Assembly (NCBI GenBank): GCA_963666305.1
Contig: OY762722.1
Location: forward strand, 3,478,432-3,542,431
DNA length: 64,000 nt
From: Candidatus Poribacteria bacterium
GTDB lineage: Bacteria > Poribacteria > WGA-4E > WGA-3G
Direction: 5' to 3'
Shown: positions 17,441-47,198 of the stretch, one piece after another
Layout: each line of letters starts with the position of its first letter
Position numbering within the stretch: position 1 is the stretch's first letter
Program-made: the position numbers and the translations under genes
The notes under the pieces: model-generated
The model's database searches: none
Seen by the model: the letters and a program-made list of their open reading frames with translations, nothing else
Told to the model about the DNA's origin: nothing

Positions 17441-20400
17441 TTATTCATCAAGGTTGAACCGCAGGACACCACGATTCGCGGTGCCGACATACAGTATGTT
17501 ACCATCAACAGTGAAAGAGATAACAGAGCCTGGAATTTCGGGTGTTGCCTGTTTCCATGTATTGGAATCCTCTTTCAAGAGATACACGTGTTGATTGGTC
17601 TGTCCATACACCGTTGTGCCCTCCGCTGCTAATCGGGAGACGACGAGAGATTTACCTTCAGCATCGGTTGTGACGTGCCAGTGCGTACTGTCGTTTGAAT
17701 ACGCAACACCTGTGTCGGTTGCCACATAAACGGTTGGTCCCGCGAAGGCGATCGCCTTGAATTTCTCAAAAGAGAACGGGATACCTACAGTAACATCGTT
17801 CCAGGTGTCTCCTTCATCAAACGATTGAAAGAGGTGTCCCTCCCGTTTTCCGACGTAAACAGTACTGCCCGACACGGCGATTTTGAAGCCCATAGAAGTA
17901 ATTGAATCATGAGCAGTAGCAACATCAGCGGAATAACTGTCAGGAGAGGACAATAGAGATGCGAAAGAGTCTTCGCCTGTATCTACTAACCCCGTGTTAT
18001 GCCACTCACTCATACCCGGTTTCCATCTATAAAGCGTCTTCCCGTATTCCACATAGTAGGTATCGCTACTCACGGCAAAGTTTCCAATAAACGCCATCAT
18101 ACTTGCTGAAGCTTGTTCTTGCATAACCTTATTCATGGTTTCATTTAACTGCTCAAAATCAATATCTTCGGGATTTGGTGGTTCGCCCTTTTCAAGGTTT
18201 TGCTTAGCCTTGTCCGTAAACGCTTGCATCATAATTTCGTCCATTTCTATGCGTATTTCCTGTGAATTGATACTTTCAAAAGCGGGCATACCCTCTATAA
18301 ACGCCATGCTATTGTCCTCGGTGGATAGACGAGCTATCGGCGAAGGCGAAGCCATATGATTCCCTCTCTTTACATACAAAGTATCGTCAAATGCTTCAAT
18401 AAGGACACCGGCGTCAATACCACGGGGAAGCGGGGTCCACGATTCACCCTTGTCTGCTGAGAAGACAAATCCATTTGTTGAATTTGCGTAGAGTTTATCG
18501 TTAACAGTGATGAGCGTCTGAACCGGAATACCAACGAGCCCGCTATTAAACGGATACCACGATTTGCCACCATCAATTGTGCACTGAACCCCGGACGGTC
18601 CTCCTTTGTAGAAAGTGTTTTCGTTCATCATCAGCATAGGTGGCGGCACGTTGTAACCTGACCCACCATTTACATTTAAGGCAGTCCAGGTTTCTCCGGT
18701 ATTCATGGAGTAGAAAAGTTCTCCAAACGCATCTACGACTGTAACTTTTCCCTGTGTTGCGAAGAGTTTGATACTCGGCATATAGATTTCTGTTGATTCT
18801 GCACCAGGAAATGGGAAACTTATCCCAAATTGTCCGCCTTGCTGCTTCTCTTCTCCACCCTCCTGTCTTTTCCGTGGATCTATGGAGTACCACGTATCGC
18901 CTTGATCTGTTGAGCGGTAAAGCGACCACTCATCATTCCCTGTCAGCGAAGATTTAAATTGCATCCCGATCTGATTCTGATTTGTCAGTTCGTCCCCCAC
19001 GGCAGCATAGAGACGATGTTCATCGACTGCTAAGGCATGGATGGCTGATTTGTTTTCGGACATTTCTGCTGGACGGATGGTCAATCTTTCCCATGTATCT
19101 GTGTTGAAACGATAGAGTCCACTGTCAGTCCCAGCAAACAGGGCGTTTTCAATGGCGGCGATTGCACGAATTTTTCGATCCGCGAGGTTCTCGTCATTCA
19201 GAGGTATCCACGACTTGCCGGTGTCCACAGAACGAAATATCCCTCCAATGAGAGCAAGATTCAGAGTCATATCGGCTTCTGCCCCAGGTCCCCTATCTGT
19301 TATGACCATGCCAACCGGCTGCCCTTTTGGGTGCGCACCGAGCGAAGTCCATGTCTCACCATCATCTGTAGAAGTCAATACCTCCCCATTGGTAGCGACG
19401 TAGAGCGTCCCGTCCCTCTCTACCATCTGTTGTGTGCCGCCCATCATCCAATCTTTCAGACTGAGTGATGTTGGACTTCCAGCGATGACGAGTTTCCATG
19501 AATGTCCGTCGTCTGCCATCTTATAAAAATTGGTGGAGGTTCCGGCGAAAATGTCTCCACGCGTTGTCGTGAAGAGGGTATTGACAAGCCCCCCTGCGGG
19601 TCCCTTTGTTTGTATCCACTGCGATTTCGGTGTTGAAACCTCAGTTTCATCGACAAGTGCCGCGGCGAAGAGCCTCGCATCCGGTTGCTGACCGGCACCG
19701 GGATTCTTACCGGGGACAGCCGACGTTCCTATCTGATTCCGCACTGCAGGTTTCGCAGGTGAATCTACGACCAAAATCGCCTCGATCAGATCAACCGTCC
19801 GTTCCGATGTAGCGTTTAGGTCGTAAGGTTTCTGGAAACGGGAGAGATACTGTGTGCCAGCCCCCATCAATAGGAAAATCAATACAGCCGAAGCAGCAGA
19901 AAGCACCCAAGGGATCACAGGTTTATTTGCAGTCGGTGGAGTCGGAGTGATACGTGAGACCTCGTTCATAATGTTCTGTGTTAAGTTAGCAGGCAGTTCA
20001 AAACTGTTGAGATTTTGTTGAATCATGTCTTCTTCCTTCATTAGACGATTACGAGCGCGGCTGAGCCGACTCTTAACAGTATTTGGAGATACACCGAGAA
20101 ACTCAGAAATGGCTTTGATTGTCAGTTCCCCAAGGTAGTAAAGCGTCATTACTGTGCGTTCGCTTTCTGGCAGTTTCTGAAGTAGTTTCTTAACAACTTC
20201 ACGGCGCGTTTCATCCGCTTCGGCTGCCTGTTTCTCTGCTACGTATCGAGAGTATGACACTTCATTCACCTCACTCATATCCGTAACTTCTAAAGATTGT
20301 TCCGGTGGCGGATTCTTTCGGAACCAGTCAGAACACAAATTTGCCGCAATGACATAAAGCCAGCCTGGAAACTGGTTATAGTTTTTCAAGGTACCCAGTT

Positions 20401-20575
20401 TCTGGTATGCCCTAAGAAACGCGTCCTGCGTAACTTCCTGTGCGATGTGAAAATCGCCGATCTTCCGCCACACCAGCGCGTGAACCCTTTTCTGGTATTT
20501 CGTGACTAAGGGACTGAATGCGTCCTGATCGCCTTGTAATACCCGTTGAATGAGTTCAGCATCGTTGTATTCCAT
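17441..20575 (-). CDS. Fused ECF sigma factor - TM helix - Asp-box (BNR) beta-propeller protein, paralog 1 (1044 aa)
   Basis: Sigma-70 region 2 is DFHIAQEVTQDAFLRAYQKL...WLYVIAANLC. The region 4 HTH is TVMTLYYLGELTIKAISEFLGVSPNTVKSRLSRARNRL. A single TM helix is VIPWVLSAASAVLIFLLMGAG. Seven or more SxDxGxTW Asp-boxes follow (STDDGETW, SVDTGKSW, STDQGDTW, SMNTGETW, TIDGGKSW, SADKGESW, SFDEGDTW). Confidence 0.8.
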   Translation of the reverse strand: MEYNDAELIQRVLQGDQDAFSPLVTKYQKRVHALVWRKIGDFHIAQEVTQDAFLRAYQKLGTLKNYNQFPGWLYVIAANLCSDWFRKNPPPEQSLEVTDMSEVNEVSYSRYVAEKQAAEADETRREVVKKLLQKLPESERTVMTLYYLGELTIKAISEFLGVSPNTVKSRLSRARNRLMKEEDMIQQNLNSFELPANLTQNIMNEVSRITPTPPTANKPVIPWVLSAASAVLIFLLMGAGTQYLSRFQKPYDLNATSERTVDLIEAILVVDSPAKPAVRNQIGTSAVPGKNPGAGQQPDARLFAAALVDETEVSTPKSQWIQTKGPAGGLVNTLFTTTRGDIFAGTSTNFYKMADDGHSWKLVIAGSPTSLSLKDWMMGGTQQMVERDGTLYVATNGEVLTSTDDGETWTSLGAHPKGQPVGMVITDRGPGAEADMTLNLALIGGIFRSVDTGKSWIPLNDENLADRKIRAIAAIENALFAGTDSGLYRFNTDTWERLTIRPAEMSENKSAIHALAVDEHRLYAAVGDELTNQNQIGMQFKSSLTGNDEWSLYRSTDQGDTWYSIDPRKRQEGGEEKQQGGQFGISFPFPGAESTEIYMPSIKLFATQGKVTVVDAFGELFYSMNTGETWTALNVNGGSGYNVPPPMLMMNENTFYKGGPSGVQCTIDGGKSWYPFNSGLVGIPVQTLITVNDKLYANSTNGFVFSADKGESWTPLPRGIDAGVLIEAFDDTLYVKRGNHMASPSPIARLSTEDNSMAFIEGMPAFESINSQEIRIEMDEIMMQAFTDKAKQNLEKGEPPNPEDIDFEQLNETMNKVMQEQASASMMAFIGNFAVSSDTYYVEYGKTLYRWKPGMSEWHNTGLVDTGEDSFASLLSSPDSYSADVATAHDSITSMGFKIAVSGSTVYVGKREGHLFQSFDEGDTWNDVTVGIPFSFEKFKAIAFAGPTVYVATDTGVAYSNDSTHWHVTTDAEGKSLVVSRLAAEGTTVYGQTNQHVYLLKEDSNTWKQATPEIPGSVISFTVDGNILYVGTANRGVLRFNLDE

Positions 20576-20614
20576 TACAAGCCTTCTCCAGAATCGTATT
20601 ATGTTTTAACTTAA

Positions 20615-20646
20615 GTGACGGATTTTAGGTTCTAAGAAGTTGCATT
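20615..20646 (-). promoter_or_regulatory. ECF-type promoter copy (variant -35 TGCAACT) 40 nt upstream of fused sigma paralog 1
   Basis: In gene orientation: AATAATGCAACTT-CTTAGAACCTAAAATC-CGTCAC. Confidence 0.55.
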
Positions 20647-20771
20647 ATTTTTCATAAAGTGGAATCAAGATTAGGAAATTGATGCTATTGACGATGTTTA
20701 AAGTAGAAACGAACGACGTAATTGCGAGCTCGTATGGTTGGAGGTGAGCAGAATCAATGTGAAATTGAGTC

Positions 20772-22028: not shown

Positions 22029-22166
22029 GCTACCCTCCGTTACAATGCGTGTTGAAGTTATAGTAAAGCCCGAAAATAAGTGGGCACCCTCTAAAACACA
22101 AAACACCTCACCGCCGCTGGCGAGGTTTGATGAAGTTTAAGTATTTAATTCGGTAATATTTATCTT

Positions 22167-22433
22167 CCCCAGGCCCGGTAGGTGCGGTTTCCTAACCGCA
22201 CCGGGTATGGTTGTAGAATTACCGAAATATTTTATTAAAACGCATTAACCTCGCCCTGCCGTTGAAGTTTATTTAATTATAGGCTTTACGATAAGATACT
22301 GTGGATGGCTATATGCAAGGTGTTCCCGTATAAGTGAGTCTTCAAACCATAAGTGTCATTTATGGTAGACTTTAGAATTAATTAGATATTCAGCACCGGT
22401 GCGGTTAGAAACCGCATCTACCGGGCCCGGGGG
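22167..22433. mobile_element. MITE-like element (~267 bp) with ~40-nt imperfect terminal inverted repeats, each containing a 9-bp-stem hairpin
   Basis: The left end is CCCCAGGCCCGGTAGGTGCGGTTTCCTAACCGCACCGGG. The reverse complement of the right end is CCCCCGGGCCCGGTAGATGCGGTTTCTAACCGCACCGG. The core is AT-rich and non-coding. A solo copy lies at 53591..53627. Confidence 0.55.
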
Positions 22434-22543
22434 AAAATGTCTGTTTATTTTTCAGGTTTACCATAGTATGTAGATAGCTCCCAGAAACCGTGTGAGCACT
22501 CAATCGCCTCTTCAGCCCCGTAGGGGCGGTATCTGTGTAGCCT

Positions 22544-24370: not shown

Positions 24371-24385
24371 CGGAAACCTCTCTTT

Positions 24386-26227: not shown

Positions 26228-26377
26228 TTATGTGTTTATCTCACTATTTAAAACTCACAACTGCAACAGAGGGAGATTAATTTGGAAATTGGATTACTTA
26301 CGACGTAGCAGAATCAACAGGTGTTCAGACTCGCTAAGCAATATCCTCTAAACTCGACTAAAGTTGGCAATATCCAT

Positions 26378-29209
26378 CTACTCCTGGATCGAGATGTGGA
26401 ACATGCCATGGTCGTGCGTACCGACGTAGAGTCGATTGTTACTGATAGCGAGAGACATAATAAAACTCCTGGGAACCTCTGCGGAAAGCAGTGCCCAGTC
26501 TTCGTAAGCATCTAAGCGGTAGGCACCGCCATCACCGACACCGTAGATTGTAGTGCCGTCTATAGCGAGTTTCTCTATGACAGTGGGCATCTGTTTTTTA
26601 TCAGTGATGGTCTGCCAGTGTTCTCCAGTTTTTGAGATCAAGACACCTTTATCGGTCGCGATGCAAACAGTTGACCCTAAGAAGATAATGTCTTTGAAAT
26701 GGGTAAAACGGATTGGCAGTATTGACGTGATGTCTTTCCAACTCTCTCCGCTGTCAAGGGATTGAAACAATTTTCCGTTGGTTTTACCTGCATAGACGGT
26801 ATCGCCAGAAGCCATCAAGGTAGATGTGAAACCGATATCGACAAGTCCTGTGTCCGTCCATTGCGGATCACCGGGTTTCCACTTGAAAAGACGCTCCTTG
26901 TATCCAGCGAAAAAAGTCTCACGACTGACAGCGAAGGATTCAATTCTCACGTGTCTTTTTCTCAGTAGATACAACATATATGCTGAGGTATCGCCATCGT
27001 CTGGTGCGGTCTCGGCTTCAAAACTCGGGACACCGTGGACGGGAATGAGTTCATCGCCCGTAGGGGATGTGCGGAAAATACGCGGTTTGTTCTCCTCAAT
27101 TGAAATGGCATAGAATTGATTATCGGCAATCGTTAGTTTGATGTGATCATAGAAATCGCCATCCAATTTGGGGGACTGCTCGTGGGTATTGAAACGAACA
27201 CTTTCCCAAGTTTCGCCGCCATCTGTTGACTGGACGAGGTCGCCCCCGATATGCATATAGAATCTGTGAGTGAGGGTGATCAGGTCGTAAGTTGCGGGAC
27301 CTGTCATCCCGTTCACAAATGGATGCCAGGTCTCACCGGCATCGGTTGTGCGGCTGATCCCGAATATGTCAACTTTGTAAAATGTATTCTCATCGGCAGC
27401 GACGGCTGGGAATCTCGACACGCCAAATGCGTTGAGGTTATCTCTAAGCGATGTCCAAGTTTTCCCCGCATCCGTGGATCGAAATTCGGAGATTCCGAGG
27501 ATTAGGAGCGTTTTCCCTGCCGCCAAGACCTGTATTGCGGCATCAAGGTTCATAACCTCGGGTTTATTTGTTGGTGTTATTTCAGTCCATGAGGTGCCGG
27601 CATCTGCGGAGTGGAAGACTCTCTTAGGCACGTAGCCGCCCAAAGAGCCTCCTTGACCGATTTTCGCGGATGCGAAATCGCGTGTTATTCCGACATAGAG
27701 GTTGTTCTCGTCGACAGTCAGGGTGTAAACAGCGTCCGATGCCTCTGTGAGTGCTTGCTTCCATTTGCTTGAATCGAGGCGATAGAGACCTTGGTTGGTG
27801 CCAGCGAATAAGGTGTTTCCGACGGCGGCGAGGGTATAAATCCATTTCTCTGTCAATCCGGTGTTGAGGGGCATCCAATGCTTACCGGTATCGGTAGATC
27901 GGAAGATGCCTTTCTCTTGAAGGGCGAGGGACAGGATGAGAGCTTCTTTCTCGGGTGCCTCGGTGACGATGAGTCCATTTGCGATGCCCTTTGGACGGGA
28001 GCCAAGGGCGTTCCATGTCTCACCCCCGTTTTCTGAAGCCAACACTTCATCAGCGGAGACGGTATAGAGGGTGCCTTGGTGCTCGGTGATAGGGATTCGG
28101 TACTGTCCAATAGGGATGTCAGCGTTAAGAAGCACCCATGTCGCGTCGGGTGTCAATTTATAGAGCCCTGTTTTTGCGGCAGCGTAGAGGGTTGCGTCAG
28201 CGGCTTCAAAGATATTGAAGACAATACTGCCTGTGGGGCCGATTGCCTGTGTCCATTGTGAATCCTCACCCGTGTCGGTGTCGTCCGATGCGTTTGCGGT
28301 GAAGTGAGGCTCGGAGGTTTGCATACCGGCACCGCTGTTTTTACCGGGCGCGATCGTTCTACCGATCTGGTTCCGCACTGCGGGTTTGGCGAGAATCTCA
28401 AGGTAGATGGGTTCATCAACGATTTCAATGGTAGGCTCAGCGTCGGCATCGAAACTGTATGGCACCTGAAACCGGAGGAGATATTGACCCCCGATGCCGA
28501 AGAGGATCGCCAAGACGGCTACGGCACCGAGCGTTGCCAAAGGGAGTAAGGGTTTCTTAGACGGCGGTGGCGCGGTTGGGCTCAGTTCGGCAATATGTCG
28601 CATAACATTCTCAGTGAGACTGTCGGGGAATTGGAAACTGCCAAGATTCTGCTGAATTACCTCTTCCTCTTTCCGTAGACGGTTGCGTGCGCGGCTCAAA
28701 CGACTCTTAACGGTATTCGGGGAGACACCGAGAAACTCACTGATGGCTTTGATTGTCATCTCGCCCAGGTAATGGAGCGTCATCACTGTGCGTTCACTTT
28801 CCGGCAGTTTTTGGAGCAGTTGCTTGACGATTTCACGGCGCGTGTCATCGGCTTCAGATTTCTGTTGGTCTGTTACATACTGAGAATATGATGCCTTATC
28901 CACCTCACTTGAATCGGCAGTATCGAGGGATTCCATAGATATGCGGTTCTTTCGGAGCCAATCGAGGCACAAGTGTGCTACGATCACATAAAGCCATCCT
29001 GCAAACGCGTTCGGGTTCTTTAAGGTCCCCAGTTTTTGATACGCCCTGAGAAAAGCGTCCTGCGTGATTTCTTGGGCGATGTGAAAATCGCCGATCTTCC
29101 GCCACGCAAGCGCGTGAATCCCTTTCTGATATTTTTTCACCAAAGGACTGAATGCGTCCTCGTCCCCTTGTAATACTCGTTGAATGAGTTGAGCATCGCT
29201 CTGTTGCAT
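26378..29209 (-). CDS. Fused ECF sigma factor - TM - Asp-box beta-propeller protein, paralog 2 (943 aa)
   Basis: The N-terminal region (MQQSDAQLIQRVLQGDEDAFSPLVKKYQKGIHALAWRKIGDFHIAQEITQDAFLRAYQKL) is near-identical to the other paralogs. The HTH is TVMTLHYLGEMTIKAISEFLGVSPNTVKSRLSRARNRL. One TM helix is present. The Asp-boxes are SENGGETW, STDTGKHW, SADAGTSW, STDAGKTW, TTDAGETW, STDGGETW, SLDSGESW. Confidence 0.8.
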   Translation of the reverse strand: MQQSDAQLIQRVLQGDEDAFSPLVKKYQKGIHALAWRKIGDFHIAQEITQDAFLRAYQKLGTLKNPNAFAGWLYVIVAHLCLDWLRKNRISMESLDTADSSEVDKASYSQYVTDQQKSEADDTRREIVKQLLQKLPESERTVMTLHYLGEMTIKAISEFLGVSPNTVKSRLSRARNRLRKEEEVIQQNLGSFQFPDSLTENVMRHIAELSPTAPPPSKKPLLPLATLGAVAVLAILFGIGGQYLLRFQVPYSFDADAEPTIEIVDEPIYLEILAKPAVRNQIGRTIAPGKNSGAGMQTSEPHFTANASDDTDTGEDSQWTQAIGPTGSIVFNIFEAADATLYAAAKTGLYKLTPDATWVLLNADIPIGQYRIPITEHQGTLYTVSADEVLASENGGETWNALGSRPKGIANGLIVTEAPEKEALILSLALQEKGIFRSTDTGKHWMPLNTGLTEKWIYTLAAVGNTLFAGTNQGLYRLDSSKWKQALTEASDAVYTLTVDENNLYVGITRDFASAKIGQGGSLGGYVPKRVFHSADAGTSWTEITPTNKPEVMNLDAAIQVLAAGKTLLILGISEFRSTDAGKTWTSLRDNLNAFGVSRFPAVAADENTFYKVDIFGISRTTDAGETWHPFVNGMTGPATYDLITLTHRFYMHIGGDLVQSTDGGETWESVRFNTHEQSPKLDGDFYDHIKLTIADNQFYAISIEENKPRIFRTSPTGDELIPVHGVPSFEAETAPDDGDTSAYMLYLLRKRHVRIESFAVSRETFFAGYKERLFKWKPGDPQWTDTGLVDIGFTSTLMASGDTVYAGKTNGKLFQSLDSGESWKDITSILPIRFTHFKDIIFLGSTVCIATDKGVLISKTGEHWQTITDKKQMPTVIEKLAIDGTTIYGVGDGGAYRLDAYEDWALLSAEVPRSFIMSLAISNNRLYVGTHDHGMFHISIQE

Positions 29210-30764: not shown

Positions 30765-30830
30765 TTTTACTCTCCTTGTATAAATAGGCTTACGTTGAAT
30801 TTGCAAGTATTATCTGTCTTGTTGATTTAA

Positions 30831-30862
30831 GTGACGCAGCTTAGATTTCAAAAGGTTGCATT
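30831..30862 (-). promoter_or_regulatory. ECF-type promoter copy upstream of the TlpA-like gene
   Basis: In gene orientation: AATAATGCAACCTTT-TGAAATCTAAGCTG-CGTCAC. Confidence 0.6.
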
Positions 30863-30967
30863 ATTTTCGGCAGAATAACAAAATCGACCTCAAATTCTCA
30901 CCTGTAGATAGGTTTAAGTTTCCGTTGCTTCCACAAACTGAAGACCGAAGACTGATAACTACTCACA

Positions 30968-32431: not shown

Positions 32432-32566
32432 TTAGTCGTCTAATTTAAAACGTAACACACCACTACCATAGGTGCCAACATAAAGCACGTTCCCCTCAAC
32501 ATCGAGAGCACTAACAGGACTCGGAATCTCGGGTGTCATCTGTTTCCATCTGTCAGAATTTGTTTT
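32432..32566 (-). other. In-frame continuation encoding the conserved C-terminal tail of the fused-sigma family, located after the TAA stop of 32567..35392
   Basis: It translates to KTNSDRWKQMTPEIPSPVSALDVEGNVLYVGTYGSGVLRFKLDD*. This is collinear with the tails of paralogs 1 and 4 (...NTWKQATPEIPGSVISFTVDGNILYVGTANRGVLRFNLDE). Confidence 0.6.
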
Positions 32567-35392
32567 TTATTGATAGACGCGTTGTTCCGTAACGCCATAC
32601 AGAGTTGTTCCGCTCACCGCAAATTGGTCTATAACGATTGGCACACCTTCAGGGTCGGATGTAACGTGCCAGTGCGTGCCATCGCTTGAATATGCAACCC
32701 CTCCATCGGTTGCCACGTAGATAGCGGAGCCAGCGAATTCTATTGCCTTGAAATGTGTAAAAGAAAACGGAAGTTCGCCCGTAACATCGTTCCACGTATC
32801 TCCTTCGTCAAACGACTGGAAGAGGTGTCCGTCTAATTTAGCGACGTAGACAGTTCTCCTTGAAACAGCGATTTTGAAACCGATGGAACTGGGATTGTTA
32901 AAACTGCCAACCGTATCAATGAGTTCACCTTCATCTATGAGCCCGGTATCAACCCATTCCGGCGTGCCGGGTTTCCACCTGAAGAGTCTCTGTTCATATT
33001 CCATATAGTACGTATTACGACTGACAGCGAAACCTCCGAGAAGTCCACGCATCAGCTGCCGGATATCTTCCACGGCCTTATTGTCATCTCCAGCAACATC
33101 CACATCTAAAGAGGCGTTTTTCCTTAAAAACGACATCCCCGGAATAGGGCTTAACCGATCGTCCTCGGTAGATAAGCGCAAGAGTTGAACGCGATGTTCG
33201 GTGTCTCCTATACCTCTGGCATAGAGCAGATCGTTGAATTTCGCCAGATTCGTGATGTTTCCGAGGCTGCTTGGGACAGGTGTCCACACCTCATCCCCCT
33301 TGGACGAGGCGAGAAGTTCGCCCCCCACATTGGCATACAGCACATTCCGCACAGAAACTAAATTCATCACGCTTGTATTTACCAATCCCGTGCTAAATGG
33401 ATGCCACGTTTTGCCGGCATCGGTTGTGCGATAAATCCCAGACGCTCCGTTCCGATAGAAGGTATTCGCATTCAAAGACACAAGCTTGGAAACATCTCTT
33501 ATGTCTGGTATATTTGAATCCAAGGTAACCCAGTTTTCACCTGCGTCACTTGAGTAATAACTGCCTTTATCGTCCATTGCGAAAAGGCTTTCTTCCACTG
33601 CTACCATTTTGAAGGTTGAAGTCGTTTTCGTTTCTGAGTCTTTGGGTTTATCCTTACCCTTTTGGTAGGATTCCGAAGTTCCAGAAGCAACATGAATCGT
33701 CAGTCCATCTTGGGAGGATGGCTCTATTTTCCTTTTTATAAAGTCTAATGTCTGCCACGAATCTCCCAAATCTGTTGAGCGATATAGGGACAGAGATGTC
33801 GCGGATATCAGTCGCGCTGGCAGACCAAACCCGACCCCTTGATTCACAGCCTTTTCCCCCACGGCGACATAGAGTCGATGCTCGGCACTCGCCACTGCAC
33901 GGATATTCTGGGATTCACCCACCGATAATAAGGTGCTGCCTTCCGAATTGAGGCGATACAGTCCAGAGTCCGTCCCAACAAACACAACATTTTCAACGGC
34001 TGTGATTGCGCGAATTTCTTTCTTCACCAACTGTCCGCTTACGGACACCCACGAGTTACCAGCGTCCACAGAACGGAATACACCATTAACAAGTGCCAAG
34101 TACATTACAATATTGGCTTGCGCCCCAGGTGCTTCATCTGTTATGACGAGATCAATCAACTGACCCACTGGACGTGTACCGAGTGTATCCCACGTCTCGC
34201 CTCTGTCCATTGAAGCGCGGATTTCTGTATCGGAGGCAACGTAGAGGGTATCGTCCGTCTCTATTATTTGCCATGATCCGTTAGGGGGCATGTTGGCGTT
34301 GACAAGGTTCCACCGACTTCTATCGTCCGTCAATCTATAGAGGTCGGTACCTGTCCCGACGTAAGAATCTCCGTTAGCTGCGATGAACAAGTTCTGAACG
34401 CCGCCACCTTCGGGTCCCCCGGTTTGGGTCCACTGCGGTTTCGGGGTTGAGACTTCTGTCGTGTCGATGGGGAGTGTGGCAACAAGGGATTCGTCCGGTT
34501 TCTGAGCTGCCCCAGGACTTTTACCGGGGAGTGCCGAACTTCCTGCCTGAGTCCGCACTGCGGGTTTCGCAGGGAAATCGTAAATAAAAACTGCGTCAAT
34601 AATCTTAACTGTCGGTTCCGAGGTGGCATCAAGGTTATAAGGCTTCTGAAAACGAGAGAGATGCTGCGTGCCAATCCCAATCAGTAGGAAAAGCACGACG
34701 GCTGAGACAACGGAAAGTGCCAACGGGACTACCGGCTTACCTGTAGGAACAGAAACCGGACTCAGACGTGAAACTTCCCGCATGATGTTCTCTGTTAATT
34801 GATCCGGGAGTTGGAAACTGCCAAGATTCTGATGGAGTATATCTTTCTCTTTTCGTAAACGGTTGCGAGCGCGGCTCAGGCGGCTTTTGATGGTATTCTG
34901 GGAGACACCGAGAAACTCAGAAATGGATTTGACCGTCATCTCGCCAAGGTAATGGAGCGTCATCACTGTCCGCTCGCTTTCGGGCAGTGTCTGGAGGAGC
35001 TTCTTAACGACTTCACGGCGCGTCTCATTGGCTTCGGCTGCCTGTTTTTCTGCTATATACTGAGAATATGAAACCCTGTCTATCTCATTAGTCTCGGTAG
35101 CCTCTACGGATTCCAGCACCGGCATGCGATTCTTTCGGAACCAGTCAGCACACAAGTTTGCCGCAATAACGTAGAGCCAACCTGAGAACTGGTTATGGTT
35201 TTTCAAGGTTCCGAGTTTTTTATACGCAGTGAGAAACGCGTCTTGCGTGATTTCTTGGGCAATATGAAAATCACCGATCTTCCGCCACACCAGCGCGTGA
35301 ACCCCTTTCTGATATTTTTTCACTAAGGTACTGAATGCCTCCTGGTCCCCCTGTAATACCCGCCAAATGAGTTGAGCATCGTTTTGTTCCAC
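32567..35392 (-). CDS. Fused ECF sigma factor - TM - Asp-box beta-propeller protein, paralog 3 (941 aa as called, GTG start; ends at an in-frame TAA)
   Basis: The N-terminus is (V/M)EQNDAQLIWRVLQGDQEAFSTLVKKYQKGVHALVWRKIGDFHIAQEITQDAFLTAYKKL. The HTH is TVMTLHYLGEMTVKSISEFLGVSQNTIKSRLSRARNRL. A TM helix and Asp-boxes (SMDRGETW, SVDAGNSW, STDLGDSW, SSDAGENW, TTDAGKTW, SFDEGDTW) follow. A GGAGGAGG RBS lies 6 nt upstream of the GTG. Confidence 0.75.
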   Translation of the reverse strand: MEQNDAQLIWRVLQGDQEAFSTLVKKYQKGVHALVWRKIGDFHIAQEITQDAFLTAYKKLGTLKNHNQFSGWLYVIAANLCADWFRKNRMPVLESVEATETNEIDRVSYSQYIAEKQAAEANETRREVVKKLLQTLPESERTVMTLHYLGEMTVKSISEFLGVSQNTIKSRLSRARNRLRKEKDILHQNLGSFQLPDQLTENIMREVSRLSPVSVPTGKPVVPLALSVVSAVVLFLLIGIGTQHLSRFQKPYNLDATSEPTVKIIDAVFIYDFPAKPAVRTQAGSSALPGKSPGAAQKPDESLVATLPIDTTEVSTPKPQWTQTGGPEGGGVQNLFIAANGDSYVGTGTDLYRLTDDRSRWNLVNANMPPNGSWQIIETDDTLYVASDTEIRASMDRGETWDTLGTRPVGQLIDLVITDEAPGAQANIVMYLALVNGVFRSVDAGNSWVSVSGQLVKKEIRAITAVENVVFVGTDSGLYRLNSEGSTLLSVGESQNIRAVASAEHRLYVAVGEKAVNQGVGFGLPARLISATSLSLYRSTDLGDSWQTLDFIKRKIEPSSQDGLTIHVASGTSESYQKGKDKPKDSETKTTSTFKMVAVEESLFAMDDKGSYYSSDAGENWVTLDSNIPDIRDVSKLVSLNANTFYRNGASGIYRTTDAGKTWHPFSTGLVNTSVMNLVSVRNVLYANVGGELLASSKGDEVWTPVPSSLGNITNLAKFNDLLYARGIGDTEHRVQLLRLSTEDDRLSPIPGMSFLRKNASLDVDVAGDDNKAVEDIRQLMRGLLGGFAVSRNTYYMEYEQRLFRWKPGTPEWVDTGLIDEGELIDTVGSFNNPSSIGFKIAVSRRTVYVAKLDGHLFQSFDEGDTWNDVTGELPFSFTHFKAIEFAGSAIYVATDGGVAYSSDGTHWHVTSDPEGVPIVIDQFAVSGTTLYGVTEQRVYQ

Positions 35393-35432: not shown

Positions 35433-35464
35433 GTGACGTAATTTAGACCTCAAAAGGTTGCATT
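35433..35464 (-). promoter_or_regulatory. ECF-type promoter copy 40 nt upstream of fused sigma paralog 3
   Basis: In gene orientation: AATAATGCAACCTTT-TGAGGTCTAAATTA-CGTCAC. Confidence 0.6.
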
Positions 35465-35747: not shown

Positions 35748-36347
35748 CTATTGTAGGTAGGGGAGCAGCAGAGTCTGGAGTCTTTGACGGGCATGGTGCA
35801 AATATGTTTTAACGGTGCTTTCCGACTTGTCTAAGTGTGAGGCAATCTCTTTTATCGGGAGGTCCTGCAAGTAACGCAAACGAAAAGCGCGACGTTGTCC
35901 AGATGGCAGTCGATGCACAGCACTACGGATAACGCGTCCAAGTTCCTCCTCCTCAAGAATCTGACAAGGTGATGACTGCTTTTGGAGCATCGGGAGGCAA
36001 TCGTCGGCGTTTTGTGGTAATGTCTCACACGCAAAAACGATTTCCCTATCTCGTTTGCGGAGGAAATCAATACTACAATTGACAGCAATTTGGTAAAGCC
36101 AACTATAAAATACGGATTGTCCCTTGAAGTTCGGCAGTGCCTGCCACGCCTTCAAGAACACTTCTTGGCAAAGGTCTTCCGCTGTCTCGCGATCCCGAAC
36201 CTTACGGTAAATCAAATTATAGATTTTTTGCTGATATTTGTATACGAGTGGGTTAAACGCCTCTGTATCGCCATTCTGCGCACGCGCCACAAGTTCCGAC
36301 TCATTGAAATCGTTGCGTTCAGGGTGTATTGTTAAATCACTTCGCAT
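35748..36347 (-). CDS. Stand-alone ECF (RpoE-like) RNA polymerase sigma factor, 199 aa
   Basis: Region 2 is DLCQEVFLKAWQALPNFKGQSVFYSWLYQIAVNCSIDFLRKR. Region 4 is QRRAFRLRYLQDLPIKEIASHLDKSESTVKTYLHHARQRL. No anti-sigma gene is adjacent. Confidence 0.8.
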   Translation of the reverse strand: MRSDLTIHPERNDFNESELVARAQNGDTEAFNPLVYKYQQKIYNLIYRKVRDRETAEDLCQEVFLKAWQALPNFKGQSVFYSWLYQIAVNCSIDFLRKRDREIVFACETLPQNADDCLPMLQKQSSPCQILEEEELGRVIRSAVHRLPSGQRRAFRLRYLQDLPIKEIASHLDKSESTVKTYLHHARQRLQTLLLPYLQ

Positions 36348-36401
36348 AGTTTTCTCCTTGTTTAGTAGTTGTCAGCAGTGAGGTTATCGTTTAACAAAAG
36401 T

Positions 36402-36445
36402 CTCTTTACTGATTGCTGATTGCTGACACCTGACGGCTGATTGCT
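36402..36445 (-). promoter_or_regulatory. Tandem-heptamer leader element (GTCAGCAATCAGCAATCAGTAAAGAGAC in gene orientation) upstream of the ECF sigma gene
   Basis: It shares the downstream 24 nt (CTGCTGACAACTACTAAACAAGGAG, including the RBS) exactly with the leader of 52578..53582. Related copies lie at 37899..37944 and 52447..52572. Confidence 0.45.
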
Positions 36446-37820: not shown

Positions 37821-37898
37821 TACAATCTCCATTATGTTGGCAGTCAGCCGTCAGTAGGGCGTGTGACGATTACAATCGTTTTCCCTCCGCCACAACGC

Positions 37899-37944
37899 TC
37901 TCTTTACCGATTGCTGATAGCGAAGCGGCTGATTGCTGACACCC
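37899..37944 (-). promoter_or_regulatory. Tandem-heptamer leader element copy upstream of the TolC-like gene
   Basis: In gene orientation: GTCAGCAATCAGCCGCTTCGCTATCAGCAATCGGTAAAGAGAG. Confidence 0.4.
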
Positions 37945-37949
37945 ATTCC

Positions 37950-40262: not shown

Positions 40263-40347
40263 TTTTAATTAATCCTGTCGTTATAATTGGGTATCCGATT
40301 CGCCAAATCTTGGTTTGACGAATCGGTTGGTTTGTGTCGCGAGCACA

Positions 40348-41082: not shown

Positions 41083-41253
41083 GGGTTTCTCCTTAGGTTA
41101 TTTTTTCCGCTTTATAATTAAGGATACAATTTTGAGGCAGAATGGGTGCATCGTGGAATGGTTAAGGGTATCAGTTATCGGTAAAGAGGTTTTCGTTTAG
41201 CCATATCCCTCTTTAACCGAAAACTGAAGACCGACGACCGATAACCACTCACA

Positions 41254-42696
41254 TTAAATATCGGAACGGAAGAACTTCAAAAACGCCACGACTGTGAACA
41301 CCAGTGCGAAAAAACCGAGTAAGAACACATCCACTGCGGAGCGGCGCAATGTGTCCGATAAAGCAGGTTCTATTAACATTGGTGGCGGCAGGATTTCGTC
41401 TGTTTCGGATTCAGAAGAATCATTCACTCGATTCATCACTTGTAGCATCTGTGCCATCGCGTCGTCTGAAATTGTGCTGAAATATGTATCATCAAGTTGA
41501 TCATAGTACCGCTCGCCCGTTTGAAAGTAGGTATCCCTTTTTAACGTGCCGGTTTGTGTGAGGTTCATTGCAAAATAGGTGAGTGAAGACGTTGGTGCGA
41601 TCCGGGAGAGCATCTCACCAACCTGCTCTTGCCGATCCTTTTCGCGTTGATAGTCCCTGTCAATTTTACCCGATTGATTCTGGAACTCCAGTCGAAACTG
41701 TTCATCAATCGGGCCTCTGAGTTTATCCAACCTTTTTTGCGTCTCTGGATCGTTTAGGTTAATACGAACACTACCGCCGCTCTCAAAAGCTAAAGCCATT
41801 TTTTTGTTAATCTTGTCTTGCTTATCTTTCATGAGGTTATTGTGAAGTGCGCTTTTTTCCATATAAACAGCCTGCTGTGTCCGAGTGGGTGCGACGAGTT
41901 TCGCGACGACAAACGCGCCTCGCGGCGCGATCAGCACTGCAAATACCCAAAACGTAAAAGCGACAATGAGCGCAGTCTTGGCGTTGTCGAGATACGTTGA
42001 AATGACGACACCTATCGCAAAAAAGACCGCAATATAGAGCAGCGAGACAAGCGTCAGACCCAGCACCGGCAGTGCAACCTTAAGCTCACCGAGCGGAAAT
42101 CCCTGCCAGACGATTAGGAGCAACCCCAAGAGGAAGGATACCAAAAAGGGAATGACGAACACGATGTATCCACCGATCAGCTTGCTCCACAGAAACACAT
42201 CTCGGGGAAGCGGATTTGACAGATTTATCCGGAGCGTGCCTGCCTCTCTTTCTCCGGCAACAGCATCAAATGTGAACAGAAGTGCCAGCAGGCTGAAAAC
42301 CGTCCCGATAATAAACAGGAAATCAAGGTTCCCGAGTGCATACGCCACGGATGCCTGAGAAATCCCTGCTGAACCTTGTCGAACGCCATTACGCGTCATC
42401 CCAAGATAGGTCGGCAGTGCTTCTTCTAAACCGTTTGCGAAGACGCTCAAAGGTGTAGGTTTGAGGAAGAACTTAGAGACTTCCACGTTTGGGTCCTGTG
42501 CGTTCGGTGGATTCTCCTTTGCTTCTGCGCGTGTGCGTTTTACCGATTCTTGATAATCTGTCACATTCTGGCTATATCTACGATAATTGATGGAAAGGGT
42601 GAGCGGGATGAGCAGCGCACACATCAGCAAGAGTGCGACGAACCGGACGCTGAGAATGTGATGCATAATCTCTTTTTGAATCAATGTCGTTAACAT
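41254..42696 (-). CDS. ABC-2 family transporter permease
   Basis: It is a paralog of 30968..32392 (MLTTLIQKEIMHHILSVRFVALLLMCALLIPLTLS..., with a C-terminal ...AFLKFFRSDI shared). It has multiple TM segments and is paired with the ATPase 40348..41082. Confidence 0.7.
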   Translation of the reverse strand: MLTTLIQKEIMHHILSVRFVALLLMCALLIPLTLSINYRRYSQNVTDYQESVKRTRAEAKENPPNAQDPNVEVSKFFLKPTPLSVFANGLEEALPTYLGMTRNGVRQGSAGISQASVAYALGNLDFLFIIGTVFSLLALLFTFDAVAGEREAGTLRINLSNPLPRDVFLWSKLIGGYIVFVIPFLVSFLLGLLLIVWQGFPLGELKVALPVLGLTLVSLLYIAVFFAIGVVISTYLDNAKTALIVAFTFWVFAVLIAPRGAFVVAKLVAPTRTQQAVYMEKSALHNNLMKDKQDKINKKMALAFESGGSVRINLNDPETQKRLDKLRGPIDEQFRLEFQNQSGKIDRDYQREKDRQEQVGEMLSRIAPTSSLTYFAMNLTQTGTLKRDTYFQTGERYYDQLDDTYFSTISDDAMAQMLQVMNRVNDSSESETDEILPPPMLIEPALSDTLRRSAVDVFLLGFFALVFTVVAFLKFFRSDI

Positions 42697-42771
42697 GGTA
42701 ATTTCTCCTGTGTTTTTTACGTGAGTTCGGTTGCATCTCTTTTACCGAACTCACGTTATTGTAGATTGAAG

Positions 42772-44088: not shown

Positions 44089-44132
44089 AATCTCCTTTTT
44101 TGTTTGTTTTCGGTTTTAACTATCGTTAATTG

Positions 44133-47100
44133 CTAATTAATTTTAAAACGTAACACACCACTGCCAGCGGTACCGACATAAAGCACGTTCTCCTCAACAG
44201 CAAGAGAGGTAATAGGCATTGGGATTTCCGGGGCAACCTGTTCCCACACACCAGTATTCTCTTTCAATCGATACACGTGTCGCTCGCTTGTCCCATACAG
44301 CGTTGTCCCGCCTATTGCAAACCTTTCTATAAGGATAGGCGCGCCTTCTGTATCCGTTGTTGCGTGCCAGTGAACGCCATCATTGGAGAACGCAACTCCC
44401 TTATCGGTCGCGACATAAACGGTGGATCCTGTAAAGGTTACTCCCTTGAAATGTGCAACAGGAAAGGGGAGGCTCGCCGTAACATCGTTCCACGTATTTC
44501 CCTCATCAAACGATTGGAAGAGATGTCCATCCCATTTACCGACGTAGATAGTACTCCCTGAAACCGCAAGGTTGGAAGGGAGGGAATCAGGATTGTTAGC
44601 GCTGTCAATCATATCGACAGGAAGTTCATTGATGAGTCCGGTATTCACCCATTCAGTTGCGCCGGCTTTCCATCTGAAGAGTCTTTGCTCATACTCCATA
44701 TAGTAAGTATCACCACTGACAGCGAAACCCCCGATAACCGACCTCACAATTTCACCCAGGAGCTCCTCTAAGGCCGGACTATAGTCTTCAACAAATGCCT
44801 CCATATCTAAATCTTCAAGGATATTATCTTCAAGGATGTTTTGCTGTCCGTCAGTCTGGTCTGTTACTGGCAGAATTTCCTTGAAACGTTCTTCCATCAG
44901 CTTGGTATAGTCTGTCTCCTTTAAAAATGGCATACCCGGAACAGACGTTAACCGATTATCCTCGGTAGATAAGCGAAAGAGGCGGGGGTGAGGTGTCGTG
45001 TCGTCTATAGCTCTGGCGTAGAGCAGATCGTTGAATCTCACCAACTGAATAATGTTTCCGAGGCTGCTTGGAACAAGTGTCCATGACTCGCCCGCATTAG
45101 ATGAGGTGAGAAGTGTGCCTCCGACGTTAGCATAGAGCACATTCTGCACAGAAACTAAATTCATCACGGCTGTCTTTACCAATCCAGCGTTAAACGGATG
45201 CCACGTTTTGCCGGTATCGGTTGTGCGATAAATCCCGGACTCTCCGTTCCAATAGAAGGTATTTGCATTCAAAGACACGAGCGTGGAAACATCTCCTATG
45301 CCCGGTATACTTGAATCCAAAGTAACCCAGGTGTCCCCTGCGTCATTTGAATAATAACCGTTTCCGTCGTCCACTACGAAAAGGTTGTCTTCCACTGCTA
45401 CCATTTCAAAGATTAAAGTCGTTTTCGTTTCTGCGTCCTTAGGACTCTCCTTGCCATTTTGGGCGGATTCCGGAGCTGCAGGTTCAACCCGAATCGTCAT
45501 GCTAACTTGGGGGGAAGGCTCTGTTTCTGTTTTTTTGTAGTCTAATGTCTGCCACGAATCTCCCAAATCTGTTGAACGGTACAGGGATAGAGATGCCTTC
45601 CATACTATTCGCGCTGGCAGCCCGAACCCAAAATCCTTGTTCACCACCTTGTCCCCCACGGCAACATAGAGTCGATACCCGGCACTTGCCAGTGCGCGGA
45701 TATTGCGGGTCTTATGGTCTTCATCCACCGGTAATAGCGTCCAATCTTCGGAACTACGGCGATACAGTCCAAAATCGGTCCCAACAAATACGACATCTTC
45801 AATAGTAGTGATTGCGCGGATTTCTTTGTTCACCAACTTCTCGCTTACGGGATCCCATGATTTCCCAGCGTCCACGGAACGGAATACGCCATCAACAAGT
45901 CCCAAGTACATTGTAATATCGGTTTGCTCTCCAGGGATCCCATCTGTTATGACGAGGTCAATCAGCTGTCCTTCTGGACGTGTGCCGAGTGAATTCCACG
46001 TCTCGCCTCTGTCCATTGAAGCGAGGACTTCCGTATCAGAAACAACATAGAGGGTATTCTCATGTTCTGTCATTTGCCATGACCCATTGATGGACATGTT
46101 GCTACTGACAAGCCCCCACCGACTTTTATCGTCCGCCAATCTATAGAGATCGGTATCTGTTCCGGCGTAAGAATCGCCGTTAGCTGCGATGAACAGGTTC
46201 TGCACGCTGCCACCTTCGGGGCCCTTTGTTTGGCTCCACTGAGGTTTGGGTGTTGGGACTTCTGCGGTGTCAATAGGCAGCGTAGCAACAAGGGATTCTT
46301 CGGATTTCTGTCCTTCCCCTGGACTTTTACCGGGGAGCACGGAACTTCCTGCTTGACTCCGTATTGCAGGTTTCGCAGGGGAATCGTAAACAAAAACCGC
46401 GTCAATAATTTCAACCGTCGGTTCCGATGTTGCATCTAAATTGTAAGGCTTCTGAAAACGGGAGAGATATTGCGTGCCAACACCCATCAGCAGGAAAAGC
46501 AAAACAGCCGAAGCCGCAGAAAGTGCCAAGGGTGCCACCGGTTTACTCACTGCAGGTGGCGGAACAGGGGACATACGCGAGACTTCCTGCATGATGTTAT
46601 CCGCTAAGGTATCAGGGAGTTGGAAGCTGCCAAGATTCTCCTGAAGCACGTCTTCCTCTTGCCGCAAACGGTTGCGTGCACGACTGAGTCGGCTCTTGAT
46701 GGTGTTCTGGGACACACCGAGAAACTCGGAAATGGATTTGATTGTCATCTCGCCAAGGTAATGCATCATCATCACCGTCCGCTCACTCTCTGGCAGCTTT
46801 TGGAGCAGTTTCTTGACGACTTCACGCCGTGATTCATCGGCATCGGCTGCCTGTTTTTCTGCTACATATCGAGAATATGACACTTTGTCCACCTCATTCG
46901 TATTGTCGGCATCTAAGGATTCCATCGGTAGGCGATTCTTTTTCAGATAGTCGCGACACAGGTTTGCCGCGATAACATAAAGCCATCCTGCAAATTGGTT
47001 ATGGTTTTTCAATGTTCGGAGTTTCTTATACGCGGTGAGGAACGCGTCTTGCGTAATTTCTTGTGCGATATGAAAATCACCGATCTTCCGCCACGCAAGT

Positions 47101-47198
47101 GTGTGAACCCCTTTCTGATATTTCTTGACCAAAGGACTGAGCGCGTCCTGATCTCCCTGTAGTATACGTTGGATGAGTTCAACATCGGTGTGTGCCAT
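44133..47198 (-). CDS. Fused ECF sigma factor - TM - Asp-box beta-propeller protein, paralog 4 (1021 aa)
   Basis: The N-terminus is MAHTDVELIQRILQGDQDALSPLVKKYQKGVHTLAWRKIGDFHIAQEITQDAFLTAYKKL. The HTH is TVMMMHYLGEMTIKSISEFLGVSQNTIKSRLSRARNRL. A TM helix and Asp-boxes (SMDRGETW, SVDAGKSW, STDLGDSW, SNDAGDTW, TTDTGKTW, SSNAGESW, SFDEGNTW) follow. Confidence 0.8.
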   Translation of the reverse strand: MAHTDVELIQRILQGDQDALSPLVKKYQKGVHTLAWRKIGDFHIAQEITQDAFLTAYKKLRTLKNHNQFAGWLYVIAANLCRDYLKKNRLPMESLDADNTNEVDKVSYSRYVAEKQAADADESRREVVKKLLQKLPESERTVMMMHYLGEMTIKSISEFLGVSQNTIKSRLSRARNRLRQEEDVLQENLGSFQLPDTLADNIMQEVSRMSPVPPPAVSKPVAPLALSAASAVLLFLLMGVGTQYLSRFQKPYNLDATSEPTVEIIDAVFVYDSPAKPAIRSQAGSSVLPGKSPGEGQKSEESLVATLPIDTAEVPTPKPQWSQTKGPEGGSVQNLFIAANGDSYAGTDTDLYRLADDKSRWGLVSSNMSINGSWQMTEHENTLYVVSDTEVLASMDRGETWNSLGTRPEGQLIDLVITDGIPGEQTDITMYLGLVDGVFRSVDAGKSWDPVSEKLVNKEIRAITTIEDVVFVGTDFGLYRRSSEDWTLLPVDEDHKTRNIRALASAGYRLYVAVGDKVVNKDFGFGLPARIVWKASLSLYRSTDLGDSWQTLDYKKTETEPSPQVSMTIRVEPAAPESAQNGKESPKDAETKTTLIFEMVAVEDNLFVVDDGNGYYSNDAGDTWVTLDSSIPGIGDVSTLVSLNANTFYWNGESGIYRTTDTGKTWHPFNAGLVKTAVMNLVSVQNVLYANVGGTLLTSSNAGESWTLVPSSLGNIIQLVRFNDLLYARAIDDTTPHPRLFRLSTEDNRLTSVPGMPFLKETDYTKLMEERFKEILPVTDQTDGQQNILEDNILEDLDMEAFVEDYSPALEELLGEIVRSVIGGFAVSGDTYYMEYEQRLFRWKAGATEWVNTGLINELPVDMIDSANNPDSLPSNLAVSGSTIYVGKWDGHLFQSFDEGNTWNDVTASLPFPVAHFKGVTFTGSTVYVATDKGVAFSNDGVHWHATTDTEGAPILIERFAIGGTTLYGTSERHVYRLKENTGVWEQVAPEIPMPITSLAVEENVLYVGTAGSGVLRFKIN

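Follow-up and report, generated by a model that had tools for sequence, protein, structure and literature searches.

In a 64-kb stretch of a Candidatus Poribacteria genome (assembly GCA_963666305.1, contig OY762722.1, positions 3,478,432 to 3,542,431; hereafter the window), we confirmed that four genes, P1 to P4, encode genuine fusion proteins in which an extracytoplasmic function (ECF) sigma factor, a transmembrane (TM) helix and a double propeller are joined in one chain. A conserved ECF-type promoter precedes the fusion genes, and for this reason the sigma domains most likely work as sigma factors and regulate their own genes. On balance, and with some reserve, we favor the reading that P1-P4 are membrane-tethered pro-sigma factors, which would be released by regulated proteolysis and would then autoregulate and induce envelope genes.

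Architecture of the fusion proteins

All four proteins have the same layout, in which the ECF sigma domain is followed by a helical linker of about 35 amino acids (aa), a TM helix, a stalk and an ectodomain of about 700 aa. The genes are located on the minus strand at 17441..20575 (P1, 1044 aa), 26378..29209 (P2, 943 aa), 32567..35392 (P3, 941 aa, with a GTG start) and 44133..47198 (P4, 1021 aa). An initial annotation, made from the sequence without database searches, had proposed four paralogs, and the four open reading frames (ORFs) were found exactly where it had placed them. P2 has the most divergent ectodomain and carries no helical insert. P4 is identical to the database protein P0001, which sits on a 5.6-Mb contig. 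In P4 the sigma domain comprises aa 1-182 (46653..47198), the cytoplasmic linker aa 183-218 (46545..46652), the TM helix aa 219-243 (46470..46544), the extracytoplasmic juxtamembrane stalk aa 244-320 (46239..46469) and the ectodomain aa 321-1021 (44136..46238), all on the minus strand. A second subfamily of such fusions, about 910 aa in length, is as abundant as the first.

Pairwise identity among P1-P4 amounts to 75-80% in the sigma domains, 47-75% in the linker, TM helix and stalk, and 36-67% in the ectodomains. The sigma domains are thus highly similar only, and not near-identical as initially described. The earlier assignment of exactly one TM helix to each protein was borne out by the Kyte-Doolittle hydropathy profiles, which show a single hydrophobic segment at about aa 218-245; P2 has one extra, weaker hydrophobic window at aa 555-573, within the propeller.

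P3 ends early at an in-frame TAA. The reading frame continues past this stop on the minus strand (32432..32566) for about 44 codons with homology to the final propeller blade in P1, P2 and P4, and the P3 orthologue of a close relative is full length (986 aa). The stop may be a recent nonsense mutation or a sequencing error, or P3 may be a truncated, possibly inactive copy.

The N-terminal domain is a clear group-4 (ECF) sigma factor. Sigma70_r2 (aa 23-89) and Sigma70_r4_2 (aa 127-178) matched above the Pfam gathering score in all of P1-P4, while regions 1 and 3 of sigma-70 had no Pfam match there. The NCBIfam model sigma70-ECF (TIGR02937) reached 88-97 bits at a cut-off of 42.9. The best family matches in NCBIfam were SigW-type models (NF007223 / TIGR02948), every one of them below the equivalog cut-off (120-124 bits vs 209; 105-113 bits vs 243), and the closest sequence in PDB was SigW from Bacillus subtilis (5wuq, E=3.6e-31). 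Among 61 homologues, the motifs FLxAY, GWLYVIAxN..D..RK and LPESERTV...NT(V/I)KSRLSRAR are invariant or nearly so. Since the AlphaFold2 (AF2) model of the full-length protein gave a poor sigma domain, with a predicted local distance difference test score (pLDDT) of 30-50, aa 1-300 of P4 were modelled separately. In this model sigma-2 and sigma-4 came out with a pLDDT of 79-92, joined by a disordered inter-domain linker (aa 91-106), and the top Foldseek matches were ECF sigma factors. Using phmmer, we found exactly five sigma domains in the window, namely the four fusions and a solo ECF sigma factor (35748-36347), the same number as counted before.

A conserved ECF-type promoter precedes the fusion genes

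The upstream regions of P1, P2 and P3 have the sequence AAAAATAATGCAACCTTT-N14-CGTCAC in common. A scan of the window with an 18-base pattern, allowing up to 3 mismatches, revealed 7 sites of the ECF-type promoter AATGCAACCTTT-N14-CGTCAC, all on the minus strand, where 0.07 would be expected. Three of them lie directly in front of fusion genes: 39 nt upstream of the P1 start (20615..20646, departing from the 18-base consensus by 2 mismatches), 39 nt upstream of P2 (29249..29280) and 40 nt upstream of P3 (35433..35464). A fourth site (48660..48691) stands at the head of a unit consisting of a small ORF (48308-48580), a PD40 protein (47305-48333) and P4, and the same arrangement occurs in a syntenic locus, L001. 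The remaining sites precede the gene of a TlpA-like thiol-disulfide oxidoreductase (site 30831..30862; gene 29370-30806, with the likely ATG at 30764; conserved in a second syntenic locus, L002), a pair of PA14-domain genes (site 13151..13182; genes 11806-12960 and 10632-11804; also found before the PA14 orthologue in locus L063) and a frameshifted TonB-dependent receptor gene (site 51456..51487; gene pieces 51115-51378 and 48965-51046). The motif holds the same places in relatives, in syntenic loci that encode fusion proteins with 92% and 63% identity to P4.

With an AAC-containing -35 and a CGT-containing -10 element the motif looks as expected of ECF promoters, and it is placed for autoregulation of the fusions. 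The ECF promoter class of Bacillus has tGAAACnTTTt or GCAAAC at -35 and CGTA or CGTC at -10 (PMC5758882). Judged by its sequence, the poribacterial motif matches this class and would be of the SigW/SigV type.

We extended the motif scan to one genome per species (GTDB, 596 Gb) and found at least 114 loci. Among those listed, 101 are titled Poribacteria and 3 are untitled contigs of metagenome-assembled genomes that carry a fusion gene; the other 10 come from scattered taxa and have no fusion downstream, in keeping with our chance estimate for 596 Gb (roughly 17). Among the matches listed, 57 of the 123 sites with a downstream ORF stand immediately before a fusion gene, at a typical distance of 37-41 nt. 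Next in frequency as targets in Poribacteria, again among the matches listed, come TlpA-like proteins and small proteins whose N-terminus is TlpA-like (26 sites, loci L007-L120), and 7 sites precede an ABC (ATP-binding cassette) ATPase gene, in front of which the window itself has only a degenerate copy of the motif.

The ectodomain resembles GH74 tandem propellers

As noticed earlier, the ectodomains are packed with Asp-boxes (S-x-D-x-G-x-T-W). Each fusion protein contains 6-7 of them (7 in P1), compared to 0.17-0.26 in shuffled sequence, and no other ORF of the window has two or more. The Pfam family Sortilin-Vps10 matched above the gathering score in P2, P3 and P4. In the AF2 model of full-length P4, aa 330-1021 were predicted with a pLDDT of 70-90, and DSSP assigned 14 four-stranded blades together with a variable helical insert (aa 764-821). 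A Foldseek search against PDB returned xyloglucanases of glycoside hydrolase family 74 (GH74) first (E 3e-21 to 1e-18, template-modelling (TM) score 0.45-0.49 on the target), followed by BT4663 and BT4673, the double-propeller glycan sensors of hybrid two-component systems from Bacteroides (E ~1e-16). The predicted ectodomain is thus a GH74-like tandem 7+7 Asp-box propeller. The previous assignment to a BNR-type propeller stands as far as the Asp-box propeller is concerned, but the comparison with sialidases, Ycf48 and Vps10 gives way to this more specific one.

Sequence identity between P1-P4 and the GH74 chains is 12-15%, and the sequence matches are local, out-of-register repeat matches. 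At the position equivalent to RTD(I/V)GG, which we take to be the GH74 motif, the residues of P1-P4 vary (D, S, K, G), and the N-terminal one of the two catalytic Asp residues, which GH74 enzymes have in the cleft between the propellers, may not be conserved. We regard the propeller as a sensor, most plausibly for a glycan or for another envelope or host-matrix ligand.

Proposed release of the tethered sigma domain

No anti-sigma domain was detectable in the fusions or in the scanned neighbours. The segment comprising linker, TM helix and stalk (aa 175-300) had no Pfam match at E up to 10 and no sequence match in PDB (phmmer), and a class I anti-sigma domain would not fit into the approximately 35 residues between sigma-4 and the TM helix. 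The initial annotation had seen no adjacent zf-HC2/RskA-type anti-sigma gene; indeed, neither these nor other anti-sigma Pfam families occur among the neighbouring ORFs scanned in the window. A resemblance of the linker and TM segment to the pre-TM segment of RsiW was considered as well, but phmmer against PDB gave no support for it.

The region around the membrane has conserved elements. Across 63 diverse members, the linker motif LGxFQLPxxLTENIM, the motif SKPxxP, Gly239 of the TM helix and the motif RFQxPYSLxAxSExTVE(I)VDA just outside the membrane are retained. In P4 the TM segment reads KPxxP...LLMGxG, with P220, P223, G239 and G241 as invariant columns, and AF2 predicts a TM helix at aa 229-248. 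The stalk contains the motifs RFQxPYxL...TVEIIDA and AKPAxRxQxG and is predicted to be disordered (pLDDT <50). The juxtamembrane motif PAKPAVRxQxG, which had been put forward as a possible processing or recognition site, is present, but conservation of AKPAVRxQxG is mainly restricted to subfamily 1; RFQxPY(S/N)L...TVE(I/L)(I/V)DA, directly after the TM helix, is the best-conserved juxtamembrane motif family-wide. Being conserved and at the same time predicted as disordered, the stalk would be accessible to a protease, and together with the conserved Gly and Pro residues of the TM helix it provides indirect hints of proteolytic release.

If the fusions are pro-sigma factors, a signal at the propeller would expose the stalk to a site-1 cut, and an intramembrane cut by a site-2 (RseP/RasP-type) protease would then free the sigma domain. 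The freed sigma factor would bind RNA polymerase and transcribe from AATGCAACCTTT-N14-CGTCAC promoters. Its targets would be its own gene (positive autoregulation) and the genes of the TlpA-like oxidoreductase, the PD40/TolB-like and PA14 proteins and the TonB-dependent receptor, whereas the ABC exporters and the TolC-like protein would probably be reached by read-through.

Several points weigh against this reading. With no detectable anti-sigma factor, the tether alone would have to keep the sigma factor off, unless the linker helices do so. After a site-2 cut, the sigma factor would retain a hydrophobic tail of about 40-50 aa at its C-terminus. We found no gene for a protease in the window, and no search for a site-2 protease was made across the genome. 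The ligand of the sensor is a putative one, and the propeller may be catalytic. Moreover, P3 has a premature stop, and the solo ECF sigma factor, which may be co-transcribed from the promoter at 48660, is formally a candidate for the reader of the promoter.

The linker helices could themselves act as a minimal anti-sigma factor in cis, comparable to the short class II proteins CnrY and NepR, locking sigma-2 and sigma-4 until a signal unlocks them, with or without cleavage. Their motif LGxFQLPxxLTENIM is conserved family-wide, and AF2 predicted two short helices (aa 182-192 and 197-207) at a pLDDT of 74-79. Furthermore, the model of aa 1-300 has a compact sigma-2/sigma-4 arrangement that is best superposed globally on anti-sigma-bound forms, CnrH/CnrY (TM score 0.69, root-mean-square deviation (rmsd) 4.8 A) and SigW/RsiW (TM score 0.62), while holoenzyme-bound sigma factors superpose with an rmsd of about 27 A. 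On the other hand, lone ECF sigma factors are often predicted compact by AF2, and the helices show no sequence similarity to anti-sigma families or to RsiW in PDB. We consider such a lock rather unlikely; it is compatible with the proteolysis model and complements it.

It is less probable still that the sigma factor acts while anchored in the membrane, like ToxR or CadC, with the ligand shifting its conformation or oligomeric state, the tethered sigma factor bringing RNA polymerase to promoters kept close to the membrane, and no proteolysis taking place. This would agree with the failure to detect an anti-sigma factor, as there is nothing obvious to remove, and other ECF groups are tolerant of extensions at the C-terminal end of sigma-4 (PMC7826278). 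The seven promoters of the window are situated within about 40 kb, near genes of membrane and secreted proteins, so that co-translational insertion could keep the locus at the membrane. However, motif sites also lie megabases apart on closed chromosomes, at 0.84, 3.68 and 4.52 Mb on OY764016.1 and at 1.64 and 3.64-3.68 Mb on OY761015.1, which fits a freely diffusing sigma factor rather than membrane-bound action. The cytoplasmic linker measures merely about 35 aa, the conserved disordered stalk resembles a processing site, and we know of no sigma factor that acts while integral to the membrane.

Which sigma factor reads the promoter

From the sequences we infer that the promoter is read by the sigma domains of the fusions themselves. 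Fusion genes of subfamily 2 are found by themselves in unrelated contexts, none with a solo ECF gene nearby, and their upstream regions have CATCTGAT-N13-AATGTGC(G/A)TCAT in common. This subfamily-2 promoter, TCTGAT-N17-CGTCA, has the same -10 box, whereas at -35 TCTGAT replaces GCAACC. The recognition helix of sigma-4 differs as well (VSqNTVKSRLSRAR in subfamily 1, TScgAIrdRLYRAR in subfamily 2), while the sigma-2 region is nearly unchanged. The difference in the -35 box, seen for subfamily 2 at only about two independent loci, thus goes with the difference in the sigma-4 helix, which argues for the fusions as readers. In locus L006 (3098-8739) two subfamily-2 fusion genes are arranged in tandem, and the subfamily-2 motif is found upstream of the first only; the second is therefore probably co-transcribed.

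Alternatively, the sigma-like domain might not be a working sigma factor at all. The fusions would then be membrane-anchored enzymes or binding proteins of the GH74 type, in line with the best structural match of the ectodomain, or PhyR-like decoys or anti-sigma partners of the solo ECF sigma factor. The promoter would be read by the latter, which has no recognisable anti-sigma factor and may be transcribed from the promoter at 48660. Against this, the sigma domains retain every hallmark of core binding and DNA binding, with 75-80% identity, while identity among the ectodomains falls to 36%, and the lone subfamily-2 genes are preceded by a -35 variant of their own. The motif is of the SigW/SigV class; the best scores of the solo ECF sigma factor, by contrast, are against the unnamed ECF model NF009166 and RpoE, and not against SigW. 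Nor is its adjacency to a fusion gene kept: the initial annotation was right that it lies directly upstream of P3 in the window, but in L002 the solo ECF gene is followed by a TlpA-like gene. We therefore hold a non-sigma role of the domain to be very unlikely. A functional pairing of the solo ECF sigma factor with P3 was rejected, as the adjacency is lost in L002 and subfamily-2 genes have no solo ECF gene nearby.

Distribution of the family

Of 400 retrieved proteins, 283 are full-length homologues (850-1100 aa) in which the sigma domain keeps its register. Many independent assemblies encode them, closed long-read chromosomes of 5-7 Mb among these, and the family is also present in the single-cell genome WGA-3G (locus L027). 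More than 120 clusters match P4 at 60% identity or more over the full length. In an exhaustive HMMER search with aa 183-1021 of P4 we obtained 179 clusters (50% identity) at E <1e-30; in many of these, query position 1-3 pairs with target residue 183-190, and hence the sigma domain stands in front. Members with 32-35% identity still match Sigma70_r2, Sigma70_r4_2 and BNR, and shorter matches that seemed to lack a sigma domain proved to be gene calls of the same fusion cut at the N-terminus, and not anti-sigma versions. Although an in-frame stop (in P3) and a frameshift (in the TonB-dependent receptor gene) also occur in the window, this conservation in hundreds of independent assemblies leaves practically no room for an artefact, be it a frameshift, a misassembly or read-through across separate genes for sigma factor and sensor, and we rejected it. 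Of the two findings that the initial annotation named as refuting it, an N-terminal domain without matches to ECF sigma profiles and a frameshift or assembly join behind the fusion, neither was obtained.

The taxon names seen were all Candidatus Poribacteria, and diverse clusters map to loci titled Poribacteria; the survey, which was not exhaustive, found no member of the family outside this phylum. Two family members, P0200 and P0244, have a degenerate sigma domain, with a weak or no Sigma70_r2 match and an altered region 4, and retain the linker motif, the TM helix and the propellers. Sigma function may have been lost in these proteins.

Genomic context

The fusion genes belong to an island that extends from about 8 kb to 51.5 kb of the window and is encoded entirely on the minus strand. 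It contains genes for ABC exporters, a MacB-type permease, a TolC-like protein, pairs of Omp85-like and DUF4159 proteins, PA14 proteins, a TlpA-like oxidoreductase, a PD40/TolB-like protein and a TonB-dependent receptor, and looks like an envelope and efflux regulon. In relatives the order fusion, unknown protein of about 430 aa, ABC-2 permease, ATPase, protein of about 800 aa, TolC-like protein and solo ECF is kept.

The gene directly downstream of P4 (42772-44088, minus) encodes a 438-aa secreted or anchored protein without a Pfam match, which has C-terminal QLEAQLG..L.T repeats. A counterpart occupies the same position in L001 (436 aa) and in L002 (415 aa), which makes it a possible sensor partner. 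Behind its promoter, the P4 operon begins with a gene (48308-48580, minus) for a small protein (about 60-110 aa) whose N-terminus (MRFMMINLLLVCLLLFGIAYLAFG) is similar to the signal or anchor of the TlpA-like protein 29370-30806.

A frameshift close to a C/A-rich run divides the TonB-dependent receptor gene (48965-51378, minus). One piece of 87 aa (51115-51378) comprises a signal peptide and a carboxypeptidase-regulatory-like domain; the other, in a different frame, is the barrel ORF of 693 aa (48965-51046). The receptor is absent from the syntenic loci L001 and L002. TonB-dependent cell-surface signalling was therefore rejected, as the receptor N-terminus is carboxypeptidase-regulatory-like, the gene is frameshifted and both syntenic loci lack it.

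The Omp85-like/DUF4159 module is duplicated on the minus strand (14110-16134 / 13217-14047 and 8164-10620 / 7284-8012), and the second copy follows the two PA14 genes under the promoter at 13151. The sequence TGTGAGT(G/A)GTTATC(G/A)GTC(G/T)TCGGTCTTCAGTTT (30807-30967 and 41083-41253) comes after each of the two paralogous ABC-2 permease genes (30968-32392 and 41254-42696). An inverted repeat of 25 nt, CCCCAGGCCCGGTAGGTGCGGTTTC, 92% complementary (22167-22191 / 22408-22432), surrounds 216 nt within the gap of 437 bp that lies upstream of the gene for the MacB-type permease, and may be an element resembling a miniature inverted-repeat transposable element or a repetitive extragenic palindrome. 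The motifs CAGCAATCAG / ATCAGCCG are repeated before the solo ECF gene (36348-36443) and before the TolC-like gene (37833-37949).

Comparison with known systems

A covalent fusion of sigma factor, TM helix and sensor is not new as such, since precedents exist (PMC8999054, PMC5411451, PMC5826349). ECF sigma factors with a membrane-spanning sensor extension in one chain are an established category (IutY, ECF52/53/48, ECF57), and P1-P4 share with them the ECF sigma factor followed by a TM helix and an extracytoplasmic domain. Distinct here are the lack of a detectable anti-sigma domain, the GH74-like double propeller, the SigW-like sigma factor, the phylum-specific multi-copy expansion and a promoter shared by divergent sensors. 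Our literature search found no paper describing this poribacterial sigma/propeller family.

The only experimentally supported model of how such a fusion works is IutY of Pseudomonas putida, an ECF243 sigma/anti-sigma hybrid, in which the sigma factor is freed by sequential proteolysis through Prc and the site-2 protease RseP (PMC5411451, PMC8999054). Like the poribacterial proteins, IutY consists of an N-terminal ECF sigma factor, one TM segment and a periplasmic domain in one polypeptide. It differs in that it contains an anti-sigma domain of the FecR type and serves TonB-dependent cell-surface signalling, in which an outer-membrane transducer takes part, whereas P1-P4 have no FecR N-terminal domain and no zinc-finger ZAS domain between sigma-4 and the membrane, a SigW-like instead of a FecI-like sigma factor and a double propeller in place of the periplasmic FecR domain.

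In Streptomyces coelicolor, SCO4117 (ECF52) comprises a zinc finger, a TM segment, a proline-rich region and a carbohydrate-binding domain (PMC5826349, PMC8999054). The C-terminal extension crosses the membrane in ECF52, ECF48 and ECF53, with an extracytoplasmic carbohydrate-binding end and a predicted proteolytic activation (PMC5826349, PMC8999054). These groups are actinobacterial, and their extension begins with a ZAS-type zinc-finger anti-sigma domain and also has a proline-rich region, in contrast to P1-P4 with their linker of about 35 aa, which lacks a zinc finger, and their GH74-like double propeller of about 700 aa. Other extended ECF groups include ECF263, with 5-7 TM helices (PMC8999054, PMC7826278, PMC5826349), and ECF57, whose long C-terminal extensions are rich in WD40-like propeller repeats and which has 5.3 copies per genome on average (PMC7826278, PMC8999054). 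Planctomycetal extensions are heterogeneous and are thought to arise from fortuitous insertion (PMC7671368). ECF57 and ECF01-Gob from Planctomycetes resemble our proteins in combining an ECF sigma factor with a propeller-rich extension in several copies per genome, but they belong to another phylum and have WD40 instead of Asp-box/BNR repeats, and the sigma domain, linker, TM helix and stalk of P1-P4 are conserved as a unit. Jogler et al. in 2012 are said to have described ECF01-Gob as having a TM helix followed by WD40 repeats.

By sequence and fold, SigW from B. subtilis (ECF30) with its partner RsiW is the closest system, with a similar promoter class (PMC5758882) and an envelope/transport regulon. 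P1-P4 score far below the SigW equivalog cut-off and have neither a separate RsiW nor a ZAS domain. RsiW is destroyed through regulated intramembrane proteolysis. In the case of pro-sigma-K from B. subtilis, the sigma factor itself is the membrane-associated substrate of a site-2-type protease, SpoIVFB, with no anti-sigma domain involved. However, pro-sigma-K is a group-3 sigma factor with a short N-terminal pro-sequence and no sensor, whereas the tether of P1-P4 is C-terminal and carries a large one. BT4663, which senses heparin/heparan sulphate glycans, and BT4673 likewise combine two tandem seven-bladed propellers outside the membrane, a TM helix and a cytoplasmic transcription output in one polypeptide. 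Their global superposition on our model is weak (TM score ~0.27), P1-P4 lack the Pfam signatures Reg_prop and Y_Y_Y, and the output is a kinase, receiver and AraC module in one case and a sigma factor in the other.

Biological significance

The higher conservation of the sigma domains compared to the ectodomains indicates that several sensors probably feed one promoter specificity. We tentatively raise the possibility, less assured than proteolytic release itself, that the paralogous sigma factors are intramembrane-proteolysis substrates in their own right, without an anti-sigma factor, and that different GH74-like sensors are coupled to one promoter specificity and one autoregulatory promoter, so that any sensor would induce all the others and a common envelope regulon. 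If true, many inputs would converge on one output, with cross-priming among the paralogs, and much of the reported abundance of 'GH74 glycosidases' in Poribacteria would represent sensor domains of sigma factors and not enzymes. The fusions may contribute to the published poribacterial GH74 counts, which may thus partly reflect sensors.

With sensor, anchor and promoter-selecting subunit in one chain, such a compact trans-envelope device would offer a clean case for the silencing and release of a tethered sigma factor. Its sharply defined promoter, probably orthogonal specificity and modular-looking propellers would lend themselves to heterologous reporter use and are possible parts for synthetic biology. 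For the organism, an uncultivated sponge symbiont, the family represents a phylum-specific multi-copy sensory system that probably reads cues from the host matrix or the envelope.

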